From IMG/VR virus record IMGVR_UViG_3300044824_000082, positions 4,652-68,651 of that record: a DNA stretch of 64,000 nt; one strand, given 5' to 3'. The stretch's first letter is position 1; each line of letters opens with the position of its first letter. Source of the DNA: a virus. Positions 5,650 to 40,874 of this stretch are shown here, one piece after another. The notes under the pieces are model-generated. The model ran no database searches and was not told the DNA's origin. It was given only the letters and a program-made list of their open reading frames with translations. Made by a program: the position numbers and the translations under genes.

Positions 5650-8514
5650 ATGCCGTCTAATGACGGCACGGCGGTAGTTCGCGGTACGGGGGTAGCCACA
5701 CTATCGGCGGCGATTACAACAGCGGCTGGCCCCGACTTCTTGTTTGTTGGCGCGGTAACGACGTTGCTAAGCGGCACCGTCACGTCGATTTCTTCGGTTC
5801 CGTCATTAACGTGGACAAAAGCGGCGGGGGTAGTCACCGGAACCACGGCGGCAACGTACGTTGATACCGAACTCTGGTGGTCGTCGCAGAAGGCAGCGGG
5901 AGCCGCAACCGTTACAGTAGTGTTCTCGGGAGCGGGAAGCTGCACGGCGATGATATGGGCCGTTAACGGGGGCGGGAACAGTTCGAATCCGTTTGACCCC
6001 GGCGCTTCGGCCCTCGTAACAGCGGCAGGAACCGGCACGGCAGTTACGGCCACAGTGACATCAACGAACCCAAGTGCGATGTTTATTGGGGTGGTTGGAG
6101 TCAACGGTGCGGACACGTTAACTGCCAAGACGGGGTTTTCAACCACAGTCGCAGCGTTCAGTACTATCCCAGCAGGGTTCGTTGAGTGGAATAACAGTGC
6201 AACGATTCGCTCGGCCTTTGCGGTAACAGCAACGGTTTCGTCTTCGGCTCAGTGGGGTATCATTGCGGCGGTGCTTCTGGGCACTCGTGGCGGCAGCGGA
6301 AAGTTGGCCGGCGCGGCTTCGGTAGTTAACAGTCATCAGGCAGTGACGGGTGCCGGCACGTTCCATAGTTCAGTTTCGGTAGTAGCGAACGCGAAAGGGA
6401 CGGGGGCGGGAACAGAGCACGGAGCGGGAACCGTTCAGACGCTTGTGCAAAAACTGAACGGCGCGGGAACGCTTGCCGGGACGCACGCGCTACTTACGTC
6501 TCAGCGTGGAACCGGCGCGGGCACGTTCCATACTACGGTATTGGTAGTTGCCAACGCATCTCACGCGGGTGCAGGCACGTTGGCCGGAACGCACTCACTG
6601 ATAACCAGTCAGACTGGAAAGGGTGCGGGCACACTGGCAGGTACGCACAGTTTGACGAATGCCCATCAAGCAAAGAGCGGGACGGGGATACTTGCTGGTA
6701 CGCATAGTCTAACGAATTCGCATCAGGCGGAAAGTGGTGCGGGTACATTGGCGGGTACTCATTCGTTGGTTTCGTCCCAAAAAGAAACGGGAGAAGGGCA
6801 ATTCGCCGGCACACATAGTTTGTTGTCCAGTCAGAAAGAGACTGGTGCGGGTACGGAGGCAGGGACACATTCGTTACTGGTTTCGCAAAAGAAGTCGGGA
6901 GGAGGACAGTTCGCGGGGACGCACTCGGCGCTCACGTCTCAGAAAGGGGTTGGTGCGGGACAACTTGCGGGTACGCACACGTTGTTAACCAATCAAAAAG
7001 AGGCCGGTGAGGGGCAGTTCGCCGGGACTCATACGCTTAAGACAAGCCAAGTTGAGGCTGGCGAAGGACAGTTTGCTGGAACCCACGCGCTCAAGACAAG
7101 TCAGGTGGAGAAAGGAGCGGGTACGTTTGCTGGCACGCATGCGTATCTCGCGTCTCAGAAAGAGACAGGCGAGGGGCAGTTTGCGGGTACTCACAGTTTG
7201 GTTAACAGTAAGCAGGCGGTAACGGGTGCGGGTACGCTGCATTCTTCGGTAGCGGTGGTTGTCAGTGAAAAGGGAACTGGGGAGGGGCAGTTCGCCGGGA
7301 CTCATACGCTTAAGACAAGCCAAGTTGAGGCTGGCGAAGGCCAGCTTGCCGGAACCCACACGTCCAAGACCAGTCAGGTTGAAGCCGGAGAAGGAAGGTT
7401 TGCAGGCACCCATACGATAAGCACCTCGCAAGTCGAGGCGGGTGAGGGACGGTTCGCCGGCACCCACACCACCATCGTATCGGGGAAGGCAACGGGAACG
7501 GGGACGTTGCACGGTGCGGGTGTTGCTTCGGGAGCGAGTGCAGGTGTTGCGACAGGTGCCGGAACCCTGCACGGTGCGGTTACAAGTAAGGTAGCGAGTG
7601 GTAAGGCGTCAGGCGCGGGGACAGAGCACGGTGCGGCAACGACAGCGGCTTCGCATCAGGCTGAAGCGGGAGAAGGTCAGTTTGCCGGGACCCATACCAC
7701 CGTGTTCAGTCAGGCGGCGAAAGGCACAGGCACGTTCCACGGTTCGGTGGCGGTGGTCGCGTCTGGTAAGGGGGTAGGAGCCGGAACCGAACATGGCGCT
7801 GCGACAATCGTAAGCCACCAGTCGAAGGCGGGAACGGGTACAGAAGCCGGCGCGGTTACAGGTGCGATTGCCAGCGGAAAAGGGACTGGGGCCGGAACAG
7901 AGCATGGCAGTGTCACGGCGGTGGCGAACGGGAAAGGTATCGGGACTGGAACCGAGCACAGCACCGTTGGTGTAGTGGCGAATGGCAAGGGGTCCGGTGC
8001 GGGGGCTTTGTACAGTTCGGTAACTGTAAAGGCAAACGGATTGGGCGCTGGAACCGGGGCGGAGCGCGGCTCGGTTGCGGTAGTAAGCCATCAGTCCAAG
8101 AGCGGCGCAGGAAGCGAACAGGGCGCGGGAACGGTTGTAAGTCATCAGTCGAAGCCGGGTTCCGGAACCGAACACGCGGCAGTCACGGCGATAGCAAGTG
8201 GAAAAGCGGCGGGAGAGGGACGTTTCGCCGGGGCGTCACAGTTCAGTGAAGCGGCGGTTGCCAGTGGAGAAGGGAGGTTCTCGACAGCCGTTTACGCGAG
8301 CCAGTATCCGCCTGTGCCAGTCAAGGGAACCTGTGGGTTCGGTTCGGCGGTGCTGGTCACGTCTATGAGTCCGACTGGGCGGGAAGTGCTCGGGGTAGTG
8401 AAGGAATCGGGAGGAGTCAGTTCTGTGGGGCAAGAGGTGTCGCCGGGAGTGTTCCAGTTCTTCATTAACGGGAAACCGTACGCGTATTATCACAACGTAC
8501 AGGGGTTGCCATGA
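5650..8514 (+). CDS. long repeat-containing fibre/adhesin-like virion protein (954 aa)
   Basis: many ~18-aa GxG(Q/T)(F/L)AGTH..SQ repeats; beta-rich N-domain; shared C-terminal domain. Confidence 0.75.
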   Translation: MPSNDGTAVVRGTGVATLSAAITTAAGPDFLFVGAVTTLLSGTVTSISSVPSLTWTKAAGVVTGTTAATYVDTELWWSSQKAAGAATVTVVFSGAGSCTAMIWAVNGGGNSSNPFDPGASALVTAAGTGTAVTATVTSTNPSAMFIGVVGVNGADTLTAKTGFSTTVAAFSTIPAGFVEWNNSATIRSAFAVTATVSSSAQWGIIAAVLLGTRGGSGKLAGAASVVNSHQAVTGAGTFHSSVSVVANAKGTGAGTEHGAGTVQTLVQKLNGAGTLAGTHALLTSQRGTGAGTFHTTVLVVANASHAGAGTLAGTHSLITSQTGKGAGTLAGTHSLTNAHQAKSGTGILAGTHSLTNSHQAESGAGTLAGTHSLVSSQKETGEGQFAGTHSLLSSQKETGAGTEAGTHSLLVSQKKSGGGQFAGTHSALTSQKGVGAGQLAGTHTLLTNQKEAGEGQFAGTHTLKTSQVEAGEGQFAGTHALKTSQVEKGAGTFAGTHAYLASQKETGEGQFAGTHSLVNSKQAVTGAGTLHSSVAVVVSEKGTGEGQFAGTHTLKTSQVEAGEGQLAGTHTSKTSQVEAGEGRFAGTHTISTSQVEAGEGRFAGTHTTIVSGKATGTGTLHGAGVASGASAGVATGAGTLHGAVTSKVASGKASGAGTEHGAATTAASHQAEAGEGQFAGTHTTVFSQAAKGTGTFHGSVAVVASGKGVGAGTEHGAATIVSHQSKAGTGTEAGAVTGAIASGKGTGAGTEHGSVTAVANGKGIGTGTEHSTVGVVANGKGSGAGALYSSVTVKANGLGAGTGAERGSVAVVSHQSKSGAGSEQGAGTVVSHQSKPGSGTEHAAVTAIASGKAAGEGRFAGASQFSEAAVASGEGRFSTAVYASQYPPVPVKGTCGFGSAVLVTSMSPTGREVLGVVKESGGVSSVGQEVSPGVFQFFINGKPYAYYHNVQGLP
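7009..7340 (+). repeat. exact 59-bp direct repeat (7009-7067 and 7282-7340) inside the repeat protein
   Basis: GAGGGGCAGTTCGCCGGGACTCATACGCTTAAGACAAGCCAAGTTGAGGCTGGCGAAGG occurs twice, in frame. Confidence 0.85.
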
Positions 8515-29567: not shown

Positions 29568-30635
29568 ATGTCGGGAAGTGCTGGTGACGTAACAGCGGGT
29601 GGGGCCGGCGTCCAAGCGGGCGGCGAACCTCTCACAGCGGCGCAGGAGACGAACTTTCTCGGCCCTGACAAGTTGGTGGGGTTGAGAATCTTATCGGCAA
29701 CCAGTCTGCGGGTGCTCTATTGGGAAAATGTGAAGAGTCTGGACGTTCAGCGAATGGCAAACTCGATTGTGGTGAGCATCGAGGAAGAGAAGCAGGAGGC
29801 CATTGGACTTGGGCGGGAGAGTTTCAAGGACGTGGACGTGCGGGCGGTGTTGTACATGCTGGAACAGGACCCGCTGGGGATTTCGGACGAGAACGCGTTC
29901 GAGGGTTACTTGCAGGTGATTCACGATGCGTTGACTCAGTACAGTCCGTACAGTGGCCTGTCCAGAGACACGGTTGGCGGGAACAACGTTGTCTGGGTGA
30001 AAATCGTGAACGAAAGGCGTGCCGAGGATGTGCGTGGAATCATCCTGTATGAGATTTCTTTTCAAGTGCGGATTTATGTGGGGCCCGGAACGGTGACGCC
30101 ATACGGGCAGAACGTGGTGCCACCTGTCATCACGACAGGCAATACGATTGTGACGGTGCCGGGTCCGGGAATCGTGATGGCGTCGTTGCTGATGATGGGG
30201 AGTCTGATGCAGGTGATGGCGCAGTTCCTCGCGGGATTACCGGCAGGCACGGTGAGCGCGTGGAACATCGTTCCGTTCGTCACTACGAAGTCGGTTGATT
30301 TGCAACGAGCAGGAAACACCGTTGCTATTGGAGCGCCCACGGGTTCGGGGCGTATCATCGGACTGGGATTGGGGCAGATGGGTTCGGGTTCGTACAGTCA
30401 GCAGCAAGTCACGGAATACACGTTCAAGTTGACGTTGTGGACGATTTCCGAGCAAGACATCGTAGCGGCAACGGATTGGATTACGGCGAACTCGCTGTTG
30501 TATTTCTTGAATCTGCCGTATGACGGAGGGCAAGTGGTAATGTCAAAGATGACGAGTTTCGGGCAGAAACAGAAAGAGCGTGGTGTCTGGTGGCGCACGT
30601 TGGATTTGATGCTTGAGGTGGTGATTGGGGTTTGA
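29568..30635 (+). CDS. putative tail completion/terminator-like protein with an internal duplication
   Basis: KSLDVQRMANSIVV..IGLG is repeated as KSVDLQRAGNTVAI..IGLG. Confidence 0.5.
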   Translation: MSGSAGDVTAGGAGVQAGGEPLTAAQETNFLGPDKLVGLRILSATSLRVLYWENVKSLDVQRMANSIVVSIEEEKQEAIGLGRESFKDVDVRAVLYMLEQDPLGISDENAFEGYLQVIHDALTQYSPYSGLSRDTVGGNNVVWVKIVNERRAEDVRGIILYEISFQVRIYVGPGTVTPYGQNVVPPVITTGNTIVTVPGPGIVMASLLMMGSLMQVMAQFLAGLPAGTVSAWNIVPFVTTKSVDLQRAGNTVAIGAPTGSGRIIGLGLGQMGSGSYSQQQVTEYTFKLTLWTISEQDIVAATDWITANSLLYFLNLPYDGGQVVMSKMTSFGQKQKERGVWWRTLDLMLEVVIGV

Positions 30636-30780
30636 GCGGGCGAAGGGGTGGGAGTAAGATTCGGCGCAATCGCGAAGACAAACAGGCACGGCGAGAAGAG
30701 TGGATACTGCGTCAGAGTCGGGAACGGAAACACGGAAAGCGGGGTAAAGGTTATATAGAAAGCGGGCAGTTTGGTAAGCG

Positions 30781-31347
30781 ATGACAAACGGAACACTTTC
30801 GGCCACGGTTCACGCGCAAGGTGCGCTCGTAAAGCCCCTTTTGGTTGATAAGGTAACGGGGGCCATCCCTGCGCTTCGTTGGCAACCGGACGAGGTGCTG
30901 TATCGTGTTTTCGATGTGAGTGCCGGAGCCTTGCGTATGATGTCGGTGCCAGCGGGGACAGGTGTAACGTCTGTGATTTGGCAGACGAACGAGGTTCTCA
31001 GTGCGGCGTATGACAACGTGAACAAGAAGCTACAGGTGAACGTAGTCGCGGCGAGTACTTTCGCGGCAACGTTGCTTCAGCCGAATGAGATTTGGCGGAA
31101 CGTTTTTGACCCTTCGACGGGAGTGCTCCGAGTGGCGAAAGTTAGTACGGGGGGAGGCCCGGTTGCGGGGCGGAAGTGGCAGGTGGACGAAGTGTTGAGT
31201 GGTTCTTATGACCCGGGGGCGAACGCTTTGCGGGTAGTCAGTGTCGGTGCGGGAAGCGGCCCGACAACGCAAATCCGGCAGCCGAACGAGGTTTTGAGTC
31301 TGTGCTACGACCCGAAGGCACACGCTATCCAAGAGACGGGGGTTTGA
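30781..31347 (+). CDS. five-repeat protein, Q(P/T/V)(D/N)E(V/I)...(F/Y)D
   Basis: five ~31-aa repeats visible; promoter GGTTATATA upstream. Confidence 0.7.
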   Translation: MTNGTLSATVHAQGALVKPLLVDKVTGAIPALRWQPDEVLYRVFDVSAGALRMMSVPAGTGVTSVIWQTNEVLSAAYDNVNKKLQVNVVAASTFAATLLQPNEIWRNVFDPSTGVLRVAKVSTGGGPVAGRKWQVDEVLSGSYDPGANALRVVSVGAGSGPTTQIRQPNEVLSLCYDPKAHAIQETGV

Positions 31348-31348
31348 A

Positions 31349-31753
31349 ATGCCGAACAACGACGACACGGTGAGCAAGTGCCGTCTTAAGTTGGCAACGC
31401 AAGAGGCGGTTACGGCGCTCAATGAGAAGGTTGAGATTTACAACCGGAACCTGCGGGAGACGATAGAGAAGAACGAGGAAGTTCGTAAGAACGAGTTTGC
31501 GAAATCCGATGCAACTTTGGATGTCAGGCTCGAAAGCATGAACCAGTTTCGGCACCAGATAGAACAAGAACGTTCGACTTTCATTACCCGCGACCAGCAC
31601 GACATTTTGCGGAGCGAGCTGATGCTCGAAATCAAGCCGCTCCAAATCGCGGCAGCCAACCGAGCCGGGGTAGCACAGGGCAGGGATTGGACATTGTACG
31701 TTTTGTTCGGGATACTTTCGTTTGTGGCAGTCGCTGGCCTGTTTATCCATTGA
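31349..31753 (+). CDS. coiled-coil protein with a C-terminal membrane anchor
   Basis: heptad-rich body; terminal WTLYVLFGILSFVAVAGLFIH. Confidence 0.65.
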   Translation: MPNNDDTVSKCRLKLATQEAVTALNEKVEIYNRNLRETIEKNEEVRKNEFAKSDATLDVRLESMNQFRHQIEQERSTFITRDQHDILRSELMLEIKPLQIAAANRAGVAQGRDWTLYVLFGILSFVAVAGLFIH

Positions 31754-31790
31754 GAAAGGTTTAAGTAGGCAGGAATAGGTAGATGTCTCG

Positions 31791-31859
31791 ATGACTGATA
31801 CGTATCGAGACTTGGTAATTACGGACGACAAGAATCGTCATCAAGTCTATTATACTTAG
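31791..31859 (+). pseudogene. orphaned 5' stub of the prohead protease gene
   Basis: encodes MTDTYRDLVITDDKNR, identical to the first 16 aa at 32416, then stops; keeps an AAAGGTTTAAGTAGGCAGG promoter. Confidence 0.9.
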
Positions 31860-31893
31860 ATACTATATACACCCCGATAACACTTAATTATCC

Positions 31894-32382
31894 ATGCCAC
31901 CCTTCAAAGATTTAACCGGACAGCGATTCGGCAGACTGGTAGTTGTTAGGTTTGTGGGAAGAGAACGATACAAAGGCGCACTTTGGAATTGTAAGTGCGA
32001 TTGTGGGAAAGAAAAAGTCGTTCGTGGTGGAAGTTTGGGGTTGGGAAAAACGAAATCGTGCGGGTGTTTGCAACGAGAGAATGGGGCCACTGTTGGGCAT
32101 TCTCGTTGGAAAGGCGGGAAGACATCGGACGGGTATGTTCAGATACAGCGGGATGGCAAGCATTTGTTGGAACATCGGATTGTTATGGAGCGGTATCTCG
32201 GGCGGAAACTTTTGGAGGGGGAGAACGTCCATCACAAGAACGGGATTCGAAACGACAACCGAATTGAGAATCTGGAACTGTGGTCAACGTGGCAACCGAC
32301 AGGACAACGAGTCGAAGACAAAACCGAATGGGCAATCAGGTGGCTGAAGCAGTACAAACCCGAAGTGATGAGGGGGCCGTAA
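31894..32382 (+). CDS. HNH homing endonuclease
   Basis: DLTGQRFGRL..WNCKCDCG..KSCGC; EHRIVME..VHHKNGIRNDNRIENLELW. Confidence 0.92.
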   Translation: MPPFKDLTGQRFGRLVVVRFVGRERYKGALWNCKCDCGKEKVVRGGSLGLGKTKSCGCLQRENGATVGHSRWKGGKTSDGYVQIQRDGKHLLEHRIVMERYLGRKLLEGENVHHKNGIRNDNRIENLELWSTWQPTGQRVEDKTEWAIRWLKQYKPEVMRGP

Positions 32383-32415
32383 GGTTTAAGTAGGCAGGGA
32401 GAGGTAAAGGGTTTG

Positions 32416-35277
32416 ATGACGGACACTTACCGAGATTTGGTCATAACAGACGATAAAAATCGTTTGGTTGCAGGGTTCGCCAACGTTGCTGTTCTGGACA
32501 GGCAAGGGGACATCGTTCCGACAGACGCAATGGCGAAGGCCATGCTGGAATACATGAAGCGGGGCGGGGTGGTTCTTTTGGGCCACGCCAACAAGCCGGT
32601 GGGCAAGGTAGTCCAGTGGAGCATCCAGAAGCCCGAAGGTAGCGATGCCGATGGAATCCATATCATTGCAGCCATTGACACGGGCACCGAGCCCGGAGAC
32701 GAAGCGTGGAAGAAGCTCGGGAACAAGACGATTACGGGGTTTAGTATTGGTGGTTCGGCCAAGGAAAGCGAGAACGTGCGAGACAAGGCGGCGGTAGGTG
32801 GAGTCGCGCGGGAGCTTAAGGGCGTGGAACTCCATGAGATTAGTCTGGTGGAGATTCCCGCAAATCAGTTGGCAACGGTGTCGGACATCAGCGTGGCGAA
32901 GAGTTGTGATAACGGGACGTGTAAGATGGAGAAGGAAGTTCATCGTGGCCCATTTGCTGCGAAGGAAGAGGCTGACAAAACGGCCCAGAAGTTGAAGCAG
33001 GAAGGCTGGGCAGTTTATCGTATTGTTCAGGACGCGGATGGATGGTACATTGATTTCGGTTCTAAAGAGAACCCCGCGAACGAAACCGGGCGGGAGGAAA
33101 TGCATCCCAAGACAAAACAGCCAGTTTTGATGGCGCAGAAGACTCTTGAAGACGTGAAGGCGATGGGGTTGGATTGGGAGTCTTCGAAGGAAGAGGCGGA
33201 AAAGGCGGCGCAGGAAATGAAGGCGGAAGGGTTCAAGGTTTACGAAATCGTTCCCGATGGGGACGAGTGGCGGATTGACTACGGGCGGGAGGAGAATCCA
33301 GCGCGTAAGACGGTAGATGAAAAGACAAAGTATCCAGACCCATACATTCCCGGGCAAACGATTGATTCGGCGGAGATTCATCGGAGGGCCGAGGAGCTTA
33401 AGCGGCGTGGGGAAGAGAAGGCCGAGGGAGCCCCCGAAGACCCCACGGTGAAGGCCGAAGGTCCGATAGCGTTGGAGCAAGACCCGAACTACGACCAGAC
33501 GAAGTACGGGGTTCAGTCGATGGGGAAGGACGCCGTGGAAAAGGGCGGCAACGAGCAGGTTCGGCGTAAGGTTGGATTCGAGATTGCGGGGGCGAGAGTT
33601 CGTTCGGTGTCCCCAGACGGTTCGCGTGGGACTTGGCACCGCATGACGGACAGCGAGCGGGGCTTGAATCGTTTGTATGGTGCGGGAGAGTTGTCAGCGG
33701 CAACGAACATCCCGAGCGGGTTCCAGCCGGCGCAACCGATTCCGAAGAAGTCAGTGGAGGAGAAGGATGCGGTATCCACGGGCGAAGCGGGGGTAGAGAA
33801 CGCGCGGTTCAGTCCTCCGCAGAAGCCCGAAGACATTGAGAAGCCGTTCAAGTCGCGGGCGCAACAGCGGTGGATGTTCTGGGCGGACCCGAAGATGGCG
33901 CGAGAGTGGGCGCACAAGACGCCGAACATTCGAAGTTTGCCTGAGCGTGCCAGCAAGAAGGATGTCATTGATGGAGACGAGGCACGTCCAGTCGGGGCAG
34001 AGGACGGAAGCAATCTGGTTCCCGAGGCGGATAACAAGAGCCATCCTGTAACGGGCGAAGAGGCGTTCACGGAGAGGGCGGAAGGTCCGCAGGGTGACAA
34101 GTACGGTGAGTTCGGTGAGAAGAGCGTCGAGAAGCTCAACCCCACAGACCAAGAGGCCGGCGATGGGACGTGTACGTGGTGCAAGGTGAAGACGAAGGTT
34201 CACGAAGACCCGCGTTCGGGCAAGCCGATTTGCGAGGCGTGCGCGGCGGAGTTACCGAACAAGGCGATGCAGCCCGAGCAGTTGAAGCCGGGCTATCAGG
34301 AGGGAAAGGAGTCTTCGACAGGCAAGCCCGTGATGCACGAACAGAAGGGCGAGTTCGAGTGCGAGACGTGCGGGAAGAAGCCGATGTCGTTCGAGGAGTG
34401 CGTGGCGCACGAGAAGACGTGCAAGGAGATGCCTCCCGACAGTTGTGACGAGTGCGGCAAGAAGGGAACGACTCGGCGCGGGTTGTGCGAGCAGTGCGAG
34501 GCCGACGCGGTGAACGAGGCGCGAGCCAAGAAGGGGCTCACGTTTAACAAGGCGGGCAAGTGTCGTGGGTGCGGATGTGCCGGGCACGAACTCGTTGACG
34601 GGCGGTATTGTCAGTCGTGCTACGAAGAGTTGCAGTATTTGATGGCCGAAGCCCGTGAAGAGTTCGGGCAGAAGAAGGCATTGCAACAGCGGACAGGGGT
34701 GCCGAGCACGATTCAGGTGGCGGGTGGAACGGCCACGTACGTTGGGACAGAGGTAGAAGACAAGAACGGGCGATGGGACGACAGCTACAAGACGAGCGAT
34801 GGGTACTGGGTGATTCATCACGGCTCGGTGCACGACGTCTATCAGAAGTCGGTAGAGAAGGAGCCGCGTGATGCCACGGACGATGCGAATGTCGGGCCGA
34901 CTGGATTGGCGGCGGAGCCAGCGTTACAGTCGTCTTTGGATGCGAAGAAGGAGGGTTCAGGGACTCCTGCGAAGGGTTCGGGTGGTAGAACTATCCCAGC
35001 TTCGGGCGGGCGAACGGTGAAGCCAAGCGGCGGGCGCACCACGAAGTTGTTGATGGCGTTGGCGGGCGTGCGGAAAGAAGAGAAGTCGGTGAGCAAGGAG
35101 TTGCGGTTGGTTCGGGCGTTGGCGGGAGTGGAGCTTGAGAAGTCCGGTGCGATGTGTAAGCGGTGCGGTTCAAGTCGTCGGCGGCTGTACAAGCGGAAGA
35201 AGGGAATGCTCTGCGGAAAGTGTGTCAAGGCCATCCGAACCCGTGCGTTAAAGCAACTGGCGGGTATCAAGAAGTAG
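32416..35277 (+). CDS. HK97-type prohead protease with a long modular C-terminal extension
   Basis: VAGFANVAVLDRQGDIV, LLGH..PVGK, ITGFSIGG, LHEISLVEIPAN. Confidence 0.88.
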   Translation: MTDTYRDLVITDDKNRLVAGFANVAVLDRQGDIVPTDAMAKAMLEYMKRGGVVLLGHANKPVGKVVQWSIQKPEGSDADGIHIIAAIDTGTEPGDEAWKKLGNKTITGFSIGGSAKESENVRDKAAVGGVARELKGVELHEISLVEIPANQLATVSDISVAKSCDNGTCKMEKEVHRGPFAAKEEADKTAQKLKQEGWAVYRIVQDADGWYIDFGSKENPANETGREEMHPKTKQPVLMAQKTLEDVKAMGLDWESSKEEAEKAAQEMKAEGFKVYEIVPDGDEWRIDYGREENPARKTVDEKTKYPDPYIPGQTIDSAEIHRRAEELKRRGEEKAEGAPEDPTVKAEGPIALEQDPNYDQTKYGVQSMGKDAVEKGGNEQVRRKVGFEIAGARVRSVSPDGSRGTWHRMTDSERGLNRLYGAGELSAATNIPSGFQPAQPIPKKSVEEKDAVSTGEAGVENARFSPPQKPEDIEKPFKSRAQQRWMFWADPKMAREWAHKTPNIRSLPERASKKDVIDGDEARPVGAEDGSNLVPEADNKSHPVTGEEAFTERAEGPQGDKYGEFGEKSVEKLNPTDQEAGDGTCTWCKVKTKVHEDPRSGKPICEACAAELPNKAMQPEQLKPGYQEGKESSTGKPVMHEQKGEFECETCGKKPMSFEECVAHEKTCKEMPPDSCDECGKKGTTRRGLCEQCEADAVNEARAKKGLTFNKAGKCRGCGCAGHELVDGRYCQSCYEELQYLMAEAREEFGQKKALQQRTGVPSTIQVAGGTATYVGTEVEDKNGRWDDSYKTSDGYWVIHHGSVHDVYQKSVEKEPRDATDDANVGPTGLAAEPALQSSLDAKKEGSGTPAKGSGGRTIPASGGRTVKPSGGRTTKLLMALAGVRKEEKSVSKELRLVRALAGVELEKSGAMCKRCGSSRRRLYKRKKGMLCGKCVKAIRTRALKQLAGIKK

Positions 35278-35315: not shown

Positions 35316-35696
35316 GTGGAATCGAAATTGGTTCAGCGCGGTAGAAAGGGTTCATCGAAATTCCGAGATTTCCGGTTGACTCAAAGGCGCAGAGGAGTGA
35401 GAAAGAGTCAGCGTGAGTATTTCTTGAAGTCGAAGTACGGTTTGACTATTGCGGCATGGGAAGCTCTTTTCGAAGGGCAGGGAAGGGCCTGTGCAATTTG
35501 TTGTTCAAAATCTGCACGCGGTAAAGCGGGTGTGGGTTGGTGTACGGACCATGACCACGAAACAGGTGAGGTGCGTGGAATCATCTGTCAACCTTGTAAT
35601 TTGTTGGTTGGTTGGATTGAGAAAAGTGCCTGTCCCGAAGAAATTGCGGTAAGGGTGATGAAATATTTAAATCAGGCAAGGTTGCGGAAGGTATAA
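35316..35696 (+). CDS. endonuclease VII-like HNH nuclease
   Basis: KYGLT..QGRACAIC..DHDHETGEVRGIICQPCN. Confidence 0.9.
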   Translation: MESKLVQRGRKGSSKFRDFRLTQRRRGVRKSQREYFLKSKYGLTIAAWEALFEGQGRACAICCSKSARGKAGVGWCTDHDHETGEVRGIICQPCNLLVGWIEKSACPEEIAVRVMKYLNQARLRKV

Positions 35697-37636: not shown

Positions 37637-38383
37637 ATGGTATTCGAAGTAATCGACACCCCCGAAAAGGCATGGTTGTTAGGTTGGATTGCAACTGACG
37701 GGAACGTTGACAGGTATCAAGTCAGGATTATCCTGAAAGATGGCGACAGTGAACGTTACGTTTGTGACGAGTTCGTAAAGGTGGCCGGCGGCAAAGTGTT
37801 CTTGCGCGAAAAGACAAATGGGAAAGTAGAGCATTACAAGACGGTTACGTGGGAATTGAACGGGGTTGAAGAGTGTGAGAATCTCGTCAAACTTGGGATT
37901 GGCCCAAAGAAGTCATTGGTATTGGGTAAAGTGGCTGTTCCAGAACAGCTCCTTTGGCACTTCGTTCGTGGAGTGTTTGAGGGCGATGGTAGCGTTTGGC
38001 TGACAACGCAAACGGGGCGCGGCAGGCCGCAAATCTCGATTACAAGCGGCAGTAAAGTGTTCGCAGAATGGGTAGCCGAGATTACGGGCGGGAAGTTGTA
38101 TCCGAAGGAGAAGCCCCGGCGGAACACGTCGTACAGCATCGAGTTCGGCAACCGCGAGGTAATCGAGGCGTTTTACAAGCGGGCCTACGCAGACGCGGGT
38201 GAGTTCGTTCTTTTGCGAAAGAAGCAGAAGATTGAAGAGGGGCTCGGAGCATATTTCAGTTCTGAAGAGCGCGGTGAAATTGGACGGCAGAACGCAGTTC
38301 CGTGGGTAGAACAGTTCACGAAGAAGCACGGCATGAGTCCGATTGAGTGGAATCTGAAGAAAGGGGCGGGCCAATCACCTTAA
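37637..38383 (+). CDS. two-motif LAGLIDADG homing endonuclease
   Basis: AWLLGWIATDG and FVRGVFEGDGS; KKSL; LLRKKQK. Confidence 0.9.
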   Translation: MVFEVIDTPEKAWLLGWIATDGNVDRYQVRIILKDGDSERYVCDEFVKVAGGKVFLREKTNGKVEHYKTVTWELNGVEECENLVKLGIGPKKSLVLGKVAVPEQLLWHFVRGVFEGDGSVWLTTQTGRGRPQISITSGSKVFAEWVAEITGGKLYPKEKPRRNTSYSIEFGNREVIEAFYKRAYADAGEFVLLRKKQKIEEGLGAYFSSEERGEIGRQNAVPWVEQFTKKHGMSPIEWNLKKGAGQSP

Positions 38384-39100: not shown

Positions 39101-39146
39101 CGGGCTCACACTTTAAATACTCTGTAGTCTTACCCTAATCACGACC

Positions 39147-39224: not shown

Positions 39225-39263
39225 CTCCAAGAATTTAAATACGCGGTTAACCCTAAATCTCCC

Positions 39264-39857
39264 ATGCCAAAGGGAGTTTACGTTCGTTCACCAGAATACT
39301 TGGCAGCTTTGAATGAAGCATTTCGCAAGCGCAGCTTGAATCCAGAGTGGCAAGAACAGCATAGGAAACAAGTAGACGCATTGAACGCCTCGCCAGAACA
39401 TCGCGAACATCTTAGAAGGATTCACGCCGACCCGGCCATACGAGAGAAGATGGGTGGGCGTGGGAAGGTGGGAGGGGCTATTGTTGGACGGAGAAACGTT
39501 GAGACGGGATTTTTGGACAAGATTCGGCCTCAAGCTGTAGTAGCGTCCAGAAGGGGATTGAAACCCACAGAGCCAGAAAAGATTGTCAGAGACAAGCTGG
39601 GCGCATCGTGGCGGTACACGGGTGATAACTCGTTCGCTATCGTTACCAAGCGGCATACAAGGTATCCAGATTTTGTCAACGAAAAGGAGCGTAAGTGTAT
39701 TGAAGTCTTTGGTAATTACTGGCACAGTAGAAAGTGGTTTCCAGAACGTGAAGCACCAGAGGACAAGATAGCCGAATACGCGGAAGTTGGTTGGCAGTGC
39801 GAAGTCGTTTGGGAGAAGGACGTTAAGAAATGGCTTCCAGCAAACTGTTCGGAATGA
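39264..39857 (+). CDS. PD-(D/E)xK (Vsr-like) homing-type endonuclease
   Basis: MPKGVYVRSPE; PTEPE..YPDF..IEVFGNYWH..VVWE; paralogue of 22899. Confidence 0.8.
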   Translation: MPKGVYVRSPEYLAALNEAFRKRSLNPEWQEQHRKQVDALNASPEHREHLRRIHADPAIREKMGGRGKVGGAIVGRRNVETGFLDKIRPQAVVASRRGLKPTEPEKIVRDKLGASWRYTGDNSFAIVTKRHTRYPDFVNEKERKCIEVFGNYWHSRKWFPEREAPEDKIAEYAEVGWQCEVVWEKDVKKWLPANCSE

Positions 39858-39860
39858 ACC

Positions 39861-40874
39861 ATGCAAACAGACGAGTTGAGAAAGATAGTAGAGGTGCTGC
39901 GCGGTATGGAAGGAGACGGCACTACGTTAGTGTCGTACCTTGTAATGCCGAAGCGTTCCATAGCCGACGCCCGTGCCCGATTGGCGCGGGAAGTCGTAGA
40001 AGCCGAGAACATCAAGCTTCACAGCACACGACACGCTGTCGTAGCCTCGCTAACCAAGGCCCTGACAGCGGCCCGAGGCATGTCAGAAACCCCCGAGAAC
40101 GGTGTCGCGCTTTACGCCTCACCCACGGATACATGGCTCATCGAGCCACCCGAACCGATTCAGGCGAACGTGTATCGGTGCGGGAGCGAGTTCGTCTTGG
40201 AGCCGTTGGAGGCGATGCTGGCCTCGAAGGAGGTGTTCGCGTTGATAGTGATAGACAGGCAGGAGGCCACGTTGGGTTGGTTGCGGGGCAGTGCCATCGA
40301 AGAGGTGGCCTATTTCGAGTCCCGCGTGATGGGCAAGCACGATGCGGGCGGGCAATCGCAGCACCGCTTCGAGCGGCAAATAGAGCATCAGGCACACGAG
40401 TTCTTTGTGAAGGTGGCGGAGGCGGCAACGCAGGCTTTCGTGGACAAGAAGCTCACAGCCGTGGCAGTGGGAGGCCCGGGAGCCACGAAGGAGTTCTTTG
40501 TGAAGGAAGGGTATCTGGACTACAGACTGCAAGAAAAGGTGCTCCCTGCGTTTAATGTGGGGTACACGAACGAGGCGGGTTTGCGGGAACTGGCGCTAAA
40601 AGTAGAGGCACATCTGCCTGCGTTGGTGAGCGCCAAAGAGCGGGTGCTCCTGCAAGGGTTCTTTGCGGCGATTCGGGACGGCCGTGCAGCGTACGGCAAG
40701 GAACAGATTGCCCGGGCGATTGCGGAAGGGCGGGTAGAGAGTTTGATTCTGTCGCACGGGGTTCCGGTGCCAGCGGGATACAGTGGAGAGGTTCAGCGAG
40801 TCGGAGAGGCCGGGGACGAGGCGGCGGCGTTCAAGAAAGGCTTCGGTGGAATCGGCGCTTTGTTACGGTACTAA
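39861..40874 (+). CDS. prf1: archaeal-type class-1 peptide chain release factor (aRF1/eRF1)
   Basis: GTT (GTS loop), NIKL, PENG, YRCGSEF (YxCxxxF), KHDAGGQSQHRFER (GGQ), GGPG, FGGIGALLRY. Confidence 0.95.
   Translation: MQTDELRKIVEVLRGMEGDGTTLVSYLVMPKRSIADARARLAREVVEAENIKLHSTRHAVVASLTKALTAARGMSETPENGVALYASPTDTWLIEPPEPIQANVYRCGSEFVLEPLEAMLASKEVFALIVIDRQEATLGWLRGSAIEEVAYFESRVMGKHDAGGQSQHRFERQIEHQAHEFFVKVAEAATQAFVDKKLTAVAVGGPGATKEFFVKEGYLDYRLQEKVLPAFNVGYTNEAGLRELALKVEAHLPALVSAKERVLLQGFFAAIRDGRAAYGKEQIARAIAEGRVESLILSHGVPVPAGYSGEVQRVGEAGDEAAAFKKGFGGIGALLRY

Follow-up and report, generated by a model that had tools for sequence, protein, structure and literature searches.

The stretch of DNA analysed here, called the window throughout, comprises 64,000 nucleotides (nt) of the 68.7-kb IMG/VR virus record IMGVR_UViG_3300044824_000082, which has an estimated completeness of 47%. 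Its G+C content is 55.4%. Within the window, a gene for an HNH-type endonuclease is located inside the gene for a prohead (capsid maturation) protease, and the first codons of the protease gene are found on both sides of it. The features of this locus, together with those used for comparison, are collected in Table 1.

The peptide MTDTYRDLVITDDKNR is encoded at 31791-31838 (copy 1) and again at 32416-32463 (copy 2), with 16 of 16 residues identical. Ten of the 16 codons are unlike in the two copies, which amounts to 10 changes in 48 nt or a nucleotide difference of 21%, and all ten are synonymous. Copy 1 extends for six further codons (HQVYYT) to a TAG at 31857-31859, and copy 2 reads on into an open reading frame (ORF) of 953 amino acids (aa). 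When the left and right flanks of the HNH gene were compared in translation, they matched with E = 6e-11. An original prediction, made from the sequence before any database search, had described this arrangement. Translation and the codon table bear out the two 16-residue copies, the ten exclusively synonymous codon differences and the stop after six more codons of copy 1, and the gene between the copies is indeed an HNH gene by its Pfam HNH_3 match. An 18-mer that the prediction had placed in front of both copies is also present, except that it begins at 31756 and not one base earlier at 31755. The prediction also noted that copy 2 uses the A-ending codons ATA, ACA and AAA, like the AT-richer HNH gene. 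These codons are rare in the phage (11%, 18% and 15% of their codon families), and the G+C content at third codon positions is 0.53 in the HNH gene versus 0.63-0.73 in phage genes. Over all ten differing positions, copy 1 carries the commoner codon at six and copy 2 at three, and one is a tie.

The 953-aa product matches the Pfam families Peptidase_S78 and S78_2 and a PHROG family of head maturation proteases (2.4e-24). In tblastn searches, capsid maturation proteases of Streptomyces phages align from residue 8 onwards (158 records), and seven closer homologues (56-88% identity) have an N-terminus of equal length ahead of the conserved R-LV-GFA. Because of these seven homologues, the ATG at 32416 is regarded as the true start, with residues 8-16 belonging to the conserved domain. 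Residues 1-16 are the least conserved part of the protein among homologues, and 6 of the 16 differ in P0002 and P0003 (88% identical over 200 aa). The protease call of the sequence collection, P0001 (937 aa), begins at the TTG of codon 17 (32464), exactly at the insertion junction, and thereby misses the 16 imported codons. By chance, the window contains a second ORF of nearly the same length (954 aa, 5650-8514) with many GxGxFAGTHT-like repeats; it was compared with the protease and found to be unrelated. The gene upstream of copy 1 has no Pfam or PHROG match.

The HNH gene is an ORF of its own, with its own ATG and with stop codons on either side. Its product matches Pfam HNH_3 (PF13392) over residues 94-130 with E 2.2e-10 and 40.4 bits, above the family cut-off of 24.8 bits, and 13 PHROG families of HNH endonucleases match the 162-aa ORF (best 6.7e-27). 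The residues His-113, His-114, Asn-116, Asp-121, Asn-122 and Asn-126 are invariant across 17 aligned relatives; the catalytic residues are conserved. In scans of contigs, relatives of the HNH protein reached about 51% identity (viral) and 48% (metagenome). The predicted model of the protein has a predicted local distance difference test score (pLDDT) of 81.9 and a predicted template modelling score (pTM) of 0.49. Sequence and profile searches of the PDB with the protein gave no hits. The leader in front of the HNH gene has no second copy within the window.

The 18-mer AAGGTTTAAGTAGGCAGG is located at 31756-31773 and at 32381-32398. It is identical in 18 of 18 positions between the two sites, whereas the 17-nt spacer between the 18-mer and the ATG matches in only 10 of 17; the distance from the motif core to the ATG is 32 nt for both copies. 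Allowing up to three mismatches, five matches to AAGGTTTAAGTAGGCAGG were found in the window against 0.03 expected. The core GTTTAAGTAG, with at most one mismatch, occurs at nine sites, all on the + strand, where 2.2 were expected and none of 100 shuffled sequences reached nine. All nine are located 18-49 nt upstream of a start codon, most of them immediately after the stop of the upstream gene. The motif was predicted to be a promoter. It does recur in front of genes, but a scan for sigma-70 promoters found nothing at either 18-mer; the GTTTAAGTAG motif is likely to be a phage-specific promoter or processing signal. The resident copy may drive the nuclease gene. A second motif (TTTAAATAC, 8-12 nt, CCCTAA) is found further downstream, ahead of an orphan start of an eRF1-like gene and of a Vsr-like ORF (39112-39138 and 39234-39256), and similar TTAAATA(C) boxes precede the Endonuclease VII-type gene and occur at about 38384. 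The TTTAAATAC-type motif may be a second promoter class.

To place the two copies in relation to an allele that lacks the HNH gene, contigs of four public runs (X1, X2, X3 and X4) were compared with positions 30500-34000 of the window. Run X1 is the probable source sample, and run X2 is a peat metagenome from a different study. One X2 contig (record 7, 385 nt) covers 31529-31832 and resumes at 32458-32538, thus skipping 625 nt, with an ambiguity of 6 nt. It differs from the window by a single synonymous substitution to the left of the skip (31799 T>C) and in 0 of 81 nt to the right. The ambiguity reflects the sequence AATCGT, which occurs at 31833-31838 and again at 32458-32463, so that the boundaries of the insert can slide by up to 6 nt to the left. 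The original prediction had expected relatives without the HNH gene in which copy 1 is joined directly to the body of the protease gene, and this is the allele found in X2: copy 1 runs straight into codon 17, and copy 2 is missing from the empty site. The resident start of the gene is therefore copy 1, and copy 2 arrived together with the nuclease gene. The insertion point is located after codon 16 of the protease gene, i.e. not between genes. From 32464 on, 75 of 75 nt are the same as in the HNH-less allele. As 0 of 81 nt differ to the right of the junction and copy 2 is 21% off copy 1, the transition between foreign and resident sequence is abrupt and falls where the duplication ends. Over the upstream gene, X2 contigs differ at 3 of 290 and at 1 of 304 nt, and all X2 pieces listed differ from the window in 11 of 1793 nt (about 99.4% identity). 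Among the low-depth X2 contigs none lies on the HNH gene, which is no proof that the gene is absent from that sample. Runs X3 and X4 cover parts of the compared region outside the junction. In X3, from a third peat study, a contig at 32782-32929 differs in 15 of 148 nt within the protease gene, with eight of nine listed differences at third codon positions. Peat thus also harbours more diverged relatives of this phage, which are plausible sources of gene ends.

Since the record is a metagenome assembly and variants of this phage co-occur in peat, the two starts could in principle have been created by misjoining two strain variants. However, copy 1 continues into a unique leader and then into the HNH gene, and no exact repeat is longer than 18 nt, which is below the word lengths usually applied in assembly. 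In addition, an X1 Logan contig of 16,130 nt, produced by a second assembler, spans 30500-34000 without a single difference. Although it probably derives from the same sample and the same reads, it shows that the structure is not peculiar to one assembler. The chimera that the prediction had named as a possible refutation was thus not encountered, and an artefact of this kind is exceedingly improbable.

HNH genes are frequent in group I introns of phages, and a direct link between copy 1 and codon 17 would leave the protein unchanged. The insert might then be an intron that splices itself out, or a segment lost from the RNA in another way, with copy 1 as the true first exon. An Rfam scan with 4227 families over 31000-33500 on both strands yielded no match at E ≤ 1. 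Beyond the HNH ORF, the insert has just 136 nt (55 + 81), of which the motif and copy 2 take up 83. For an intron, a complete second start would be superfluous, and the same layout was also found at the 3' ends of genes and with other nuclease families, as described below. An intron is accordingly highly improbable, and we infer that the insert is not spliced. An intein was rejected outright, because the copy 1 frame is ended by the TAG at 31857 and the HNH frame by the TAA at 32380, and copy 1 and the protease are in different frames.

The flanks of 58 + strand ORFs of the window were examined for further duplications of gene ends. Two of the 58 gave a match, the HNH gene and the ORF at 39264-39857. 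In the second case a Vsr-like nuclease ORF, weakly assigned, separates an orphan start of 25 codons from an intact eRF1-like gene. The first 25 residues of the eRF1-like product are identical to the orphan in 15 of 25 positions (39 of 75 nt), and TCGTA is found at both junctions. The eRF1-like protein, a release-factor homologue, has no relative in viral contigs. The ORFs of the window read well under the standard genetic code.

The head module is dense in nuclease genes, comprising the HNH, Endonuclease VII and LAGLIDADG_3 genes and the Vsr-like ORF. No duplicated flanks were detected for the Endonuclease VII and LAGLIDADG_3 genes at E ≤ 0.01.

For a wider comparison, 161 loci were collected, containing 136 distinct ORFs related to the HNH_3 gene. 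The flanks were testable for 121 of them including that of the window, leaving 120 others. As controls, 232 ORFs from the same loci were used, of which 190 were testable. Duplicated gene ends abutting the nuclease gene on both sides were found for 3 of the 120 other HNH_3 ORFs and for none of the 190 controls. These three loci lie on other phage contigs. The genes concerned encode ThyX, a DNA methyltransferase and the terminase large subunit, and in the latter two it is the C-terminus that is duplicated. Eight further loci (L014, L016, L106, L120, L121, L124, L125 and L129), in which an HNH_3 gene lies between tandem full-length paralogues, are not terminus duplications and were not counted. 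The paralogues at these loci are about 165 aa long and share the motifs FNGDTGxNY and DYxNTxKxKT, and a second HNH gene sometimes follows the next paralogue. Low-complexity matches away from gene ends (L057 and L071) were likewise left uncounted.

Table 1. Features of the protease locus, of the second duplicated start in the same window and of comparable loci
Feature	Position	Strand	Remarks
Upstream gene, 134 aa	31349..31753	+	Left homology arm, common to the HNH-less allele
Resident 18-mer	31756..31773	+	Now ahead of the orphan start and the HNH gene
Orphan resident protease start	31791..31859	+	Codons 1-16 (31791-31838), 6 foreign codons, TAG; 22 codons
Insert, 625 nt	31839..32463	+	Present or absent as a unit; G+C 47.7% vs 55.4% for the window
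HNH leader	31839..31893	+	AT-rich; without Shine-Dalgarno-like sequence
HNH_3 endonuclease gene, 162 aa	31894..32382	+	N-terminal CxC...CxC cysteines; C-terminal HNH motif, residues 94-130
Imported 18-mer	32381..32398	+	Overlaps the HNH stop codon
Imported codons 1-16 (copy 2)	32416..32463	+	Joined in frame to the body of the resident gene
Chimeric prohead (capsid maturation) protease gene, 953 aa	32416..35277	+	Protease domain at about residues 8-175; long Cys-rich tail
Endonuclease VII-type gene	35316-35696		Directly after the protease gene; Pfam 2.1e-17; G+C 47.5%
LAGLIDADG_3 gene	37637-38383		After the major capsid gene; Pfam 9.6e-7
Second case, orphan start of 25 codons	39147-39224	+	Ended by TAG
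Vsr-like nuclease ORF	39264-39857	+	Weak match to Pfam Vsr (E 0.0033), under the cut-off
Intact eRF1-like gene	39861-40874	+	Pfam eRF1_2 1.8e-34, eRF1_3 2e-9; baeRF family 10
GTTTAAGTAG sites	1932, 4594, 12610, 24138, 31759, 32384, 45517, 47717, 54566	+	At most one mismatch
HNH_3 ORF flanked by thyX start	L074:1336-1930		17-codon orphan; E 1e-4
HNH_3 ORF flanked by DNA methyltransferase C-terminus	L069:2640-3395		31 residues, 21/31 identical; E 3e-12
HNH_3 ORF flanked by terminase large-subunit C-terminus	L058:2750-3350		Including the stop; E 0.002, marginal

Instead of a mobile element, the HNH gene could be a useful resident gene of the phage, for instance one associated with packaging, in which case X2 would represent a deletion derivative and no homing would be involved. 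HNH proteins that take part in DNA packaging are located in head modules (PMC12724721), and a deletion via the 6-nt repeat would yield exactly the form seen in X2. This explanation is nevertheless very improbable, as it leaves the second, differently spelled start unexplained. Moreover, the gene is of the HNH_3 type and precedes the protease gene instead of lying beside the terminase gene, its base composition is foreign, and three more nuclease genes of other families are located within 8 kb, one of them with the same scar.

Taken together, the locus probably represents a 625-nt free-standing HNH homing cassette that entered the protease gene of an uncultured peat phage behind codon 16, with the protease now starting from the imported sequence. 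The non-splicing homing element of the original prediction is thus supported, both by the empty allele and by the lack of an intron signature. The word "recoded" that the prediction applied to copy 2 describes a pattern, not a demonstrated process. Most likely, a diverged relative supplied copy 2 along with the nuclease gene. The combination of an 18-mer identical in all positions, a spacer matching in 10 of 17 and a coding part with synonymous changes only is the pattern that a functional start evolved elsewhere would have.

A possible sequence of events can be proposed on this basis. In a diverged relative, the nuclease gene would have occupied its usual place between genes, directly upstream of the start motif of the protease gene. 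Its product would then have cut the resident protease gene, either exactly at the 31838|32464 junction or no more than a few nt away. From this break, the downstream end would have invaded the donor and primed repair, so that codons 16 to 1, the motif, the HNH gene and its leader were copied leftwards. The repair product would finally have been joined to the unresected upstream end without homology. Such non-homologous joining would leave both starts in place and would make donor sequence give way to resident sequence precisely where the break had been. In phage T4, one-sided homology is reported to lead to illegitimate double-strand-break repair with microhomology junctions, a proposed route to ectopic sites, and seg and mob genes embed the promoters of downstream genes (PMC2988022). 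The present cassette would spread by ordinary homing, which is now possible because both its flanks are perfectly homologous to the empty allele. In the filled allele, one junction is formed by copy 1 and the leader and the other by copy 2, with its 10 changes in 48 nt, and the gene body. As neither equals the empty target, the filled allele should be protected from its own nuclease and should be less prone to deletion by recombination between the repeats.

Several observations weigh against the homing-cassette interpretation or parts of it. The empty allele is known from Logan contigs of low depth (4.3), and it could in principle be a secondary deletion via the 6-nt repeat instead of the ancestral form. 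The donor was not found: the N-terminal 200 aa of the protease gave no relative in scans of IMG/VR viral contigs or JGI metagenome contigs, the capsid protein gave none in viral contigs, and a profile of protease homologues reached only relatives of at most 45% identity. A Foldseek search of the HNH model against the PDB returned no match at E ≤ 0.001, the best being a non-significant one to I-HmuI (1u3e; E 0.21, template modelling score 0.30). The enrichment of duplicated gene ends around HNH genes is suggestive but not significant (one-sided Fisher P = 0.057), and at E ≤ 1e-3 it decreases to 2 of 120 with P = 0.15. Finally, a simple diverged donor is not easily squared with the lack of any residue change beside a random level of synonymous change.

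This last point leads to the question of how the spelling of copy 2 arose. Of 15 codons, 10 differ between the copies, compared with 8.3 expected for a random synonymous draw (P for 10 or more = 0.24). The four other terminus duplications contain 66 differing codons, of which 32 alter the residue, whereas none of the 10 does so here (Fisher P = 0.004). Recent change in place is excluded, because the flanks are 99.4% identical to the empty allele. Two readings are available: either the peptide stayed the same in the donor lineage, or selection for self-immunity and repeat stability shaped the spelling. The latter would refine the homing-cassette interpretation in that the spelling of copy 2 was selected for the greatest possible DNA difference with the peptide kept, making the junction immune to the nuclease and blocking deletion between copy 1 and copy 2. 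It is consistent with the purely synonymous differences, which set this case apart from the other four, and with the fact that they affect the 16 residues that are least conserved among homologues. On the other hand, ten differing codons are not above the random draw, the comparison covers just 16 codons, rapid synonymous change has no known source, and the four other cases display the ordinary pattern of a diverged donor. We put forward selection on the spelling only tentatively, as the less probable course.

Homing endonuclease genes are usually said to persist in essential genes only within self-splicing introns or inteins, and otherwise to be found between genes. The locus described here would be a third solution in a phage, in which the element brings a spare gene end together with start signals. 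Because filled and empty alleles are both seen in nature, the site of insertion can be given with an uncertainty of 6 nt, and from it the place of the cut is predicted. By this process, essential genes become chimeric, and promoter motifs as well as gene ends pass from one phage to a diverged one; short orphan ORFs are left behind and gene callers are misled. The layout also amounts to a natural blueprint for putting a gene into an essential phage gene that keeps its function. The synonymous-only difference, if selected, would be a rare instance of selection on spelling rather than on protein. More speculatively, phages may hold an undescribed class of "terminus-carrying" homing cassettes, with HNH, Vsr-like or other nucleases, inside essential genes, which need neither intron nor intein because they bring a replacement gene end and, for 5' ends, the start signals too. 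In the most refined examples, the present one among them, the spelling would have been selected against the element's own target and against repeat homology with the peptide preserved; on present evidence we consider so general a class rather doubtful. If it exists, such cassettes would be a regular route for gene ends and promoters between distant phages.

A literature search covering the main text of papers found no published phage nuclease gene that carries a replacement gene end. Among phage elements, the Seg and Mob endonucleases of T-even phages are similar in several respects. They are likewise encoded by ORFs of their own without intron or intein, are present or absent between close relatives, lie beside or inside essential genes and carry downstream promoters, and one-sided illegitimate break repair has been proposed as their route to new sites (PMC2988022). 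Unlike the present cassette, however, they are intergenic or split a gene into two working pieces, as for nrdA/mobE of Aeh1 and gene 60/mobA of T4 (PMC2988022). In the protease locus, an imported duplicate of the terminus makes good the interruption of the gene; that review contains no word with the stem "duplicat" (PMC2988022). The hidden HNH genes of the ShiLan type in DNA methylase genes of actinophages resemble the present case in that they are non-splicing, lie inside a coding region and have a homing-like distribution. They are read through in frame as an extra loop, with the HNH gene out of frame, whereas in the present case the gene restarts behind the insert (PMC11855218).

The closest known system is the fungal mitochondrial gene hybrids formed by mobile endonuclease ORFs (mORFs), and the locus works alike. 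Such hybrids are reported for atp6 of Allomyces macrogynus and for atp6, atp9, cox2 and nad3 of Glomus (PMC3630166), and in Endoconidiophora partial C-terminal duplications of cob and atp6 occur with homing endonuclease gene ORFs (PMC6279837). In both the fungal hybrids and the phage locus, an endonuclease ORF lies inside a protein gene and a foreign, diverged gene end is fused in frame to the body of that gene (PMC3630166). The native end is an orphan that matches close relatives, as copy 1 matches the X2 allele, and in the fungi it is left unexpressed (PMC3630166). Even the spelling has a parallel, since the differences of Glomus atp6 from its relative are reported to be all synonymous (PMC3630166). 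The systems differ in that the fungal elements are organellar, of the LAGLIDADG or GIY-YIG type, and replace the 3' end, whereas the present one is a phage HNH element at the 5' end (PMC3630166). An element that replaces a 5' end must also bring the start of transcription and translation, and the cassette does so. Expression of the fungal hybrids was established by reverse transcription PCR (PMC3630166). What the phage locus contributes is a natural empty allele that locates the junction to within 6 nt, a carried start motif, a difference confined to synonymous changes and another scar elsewhere in this phage.

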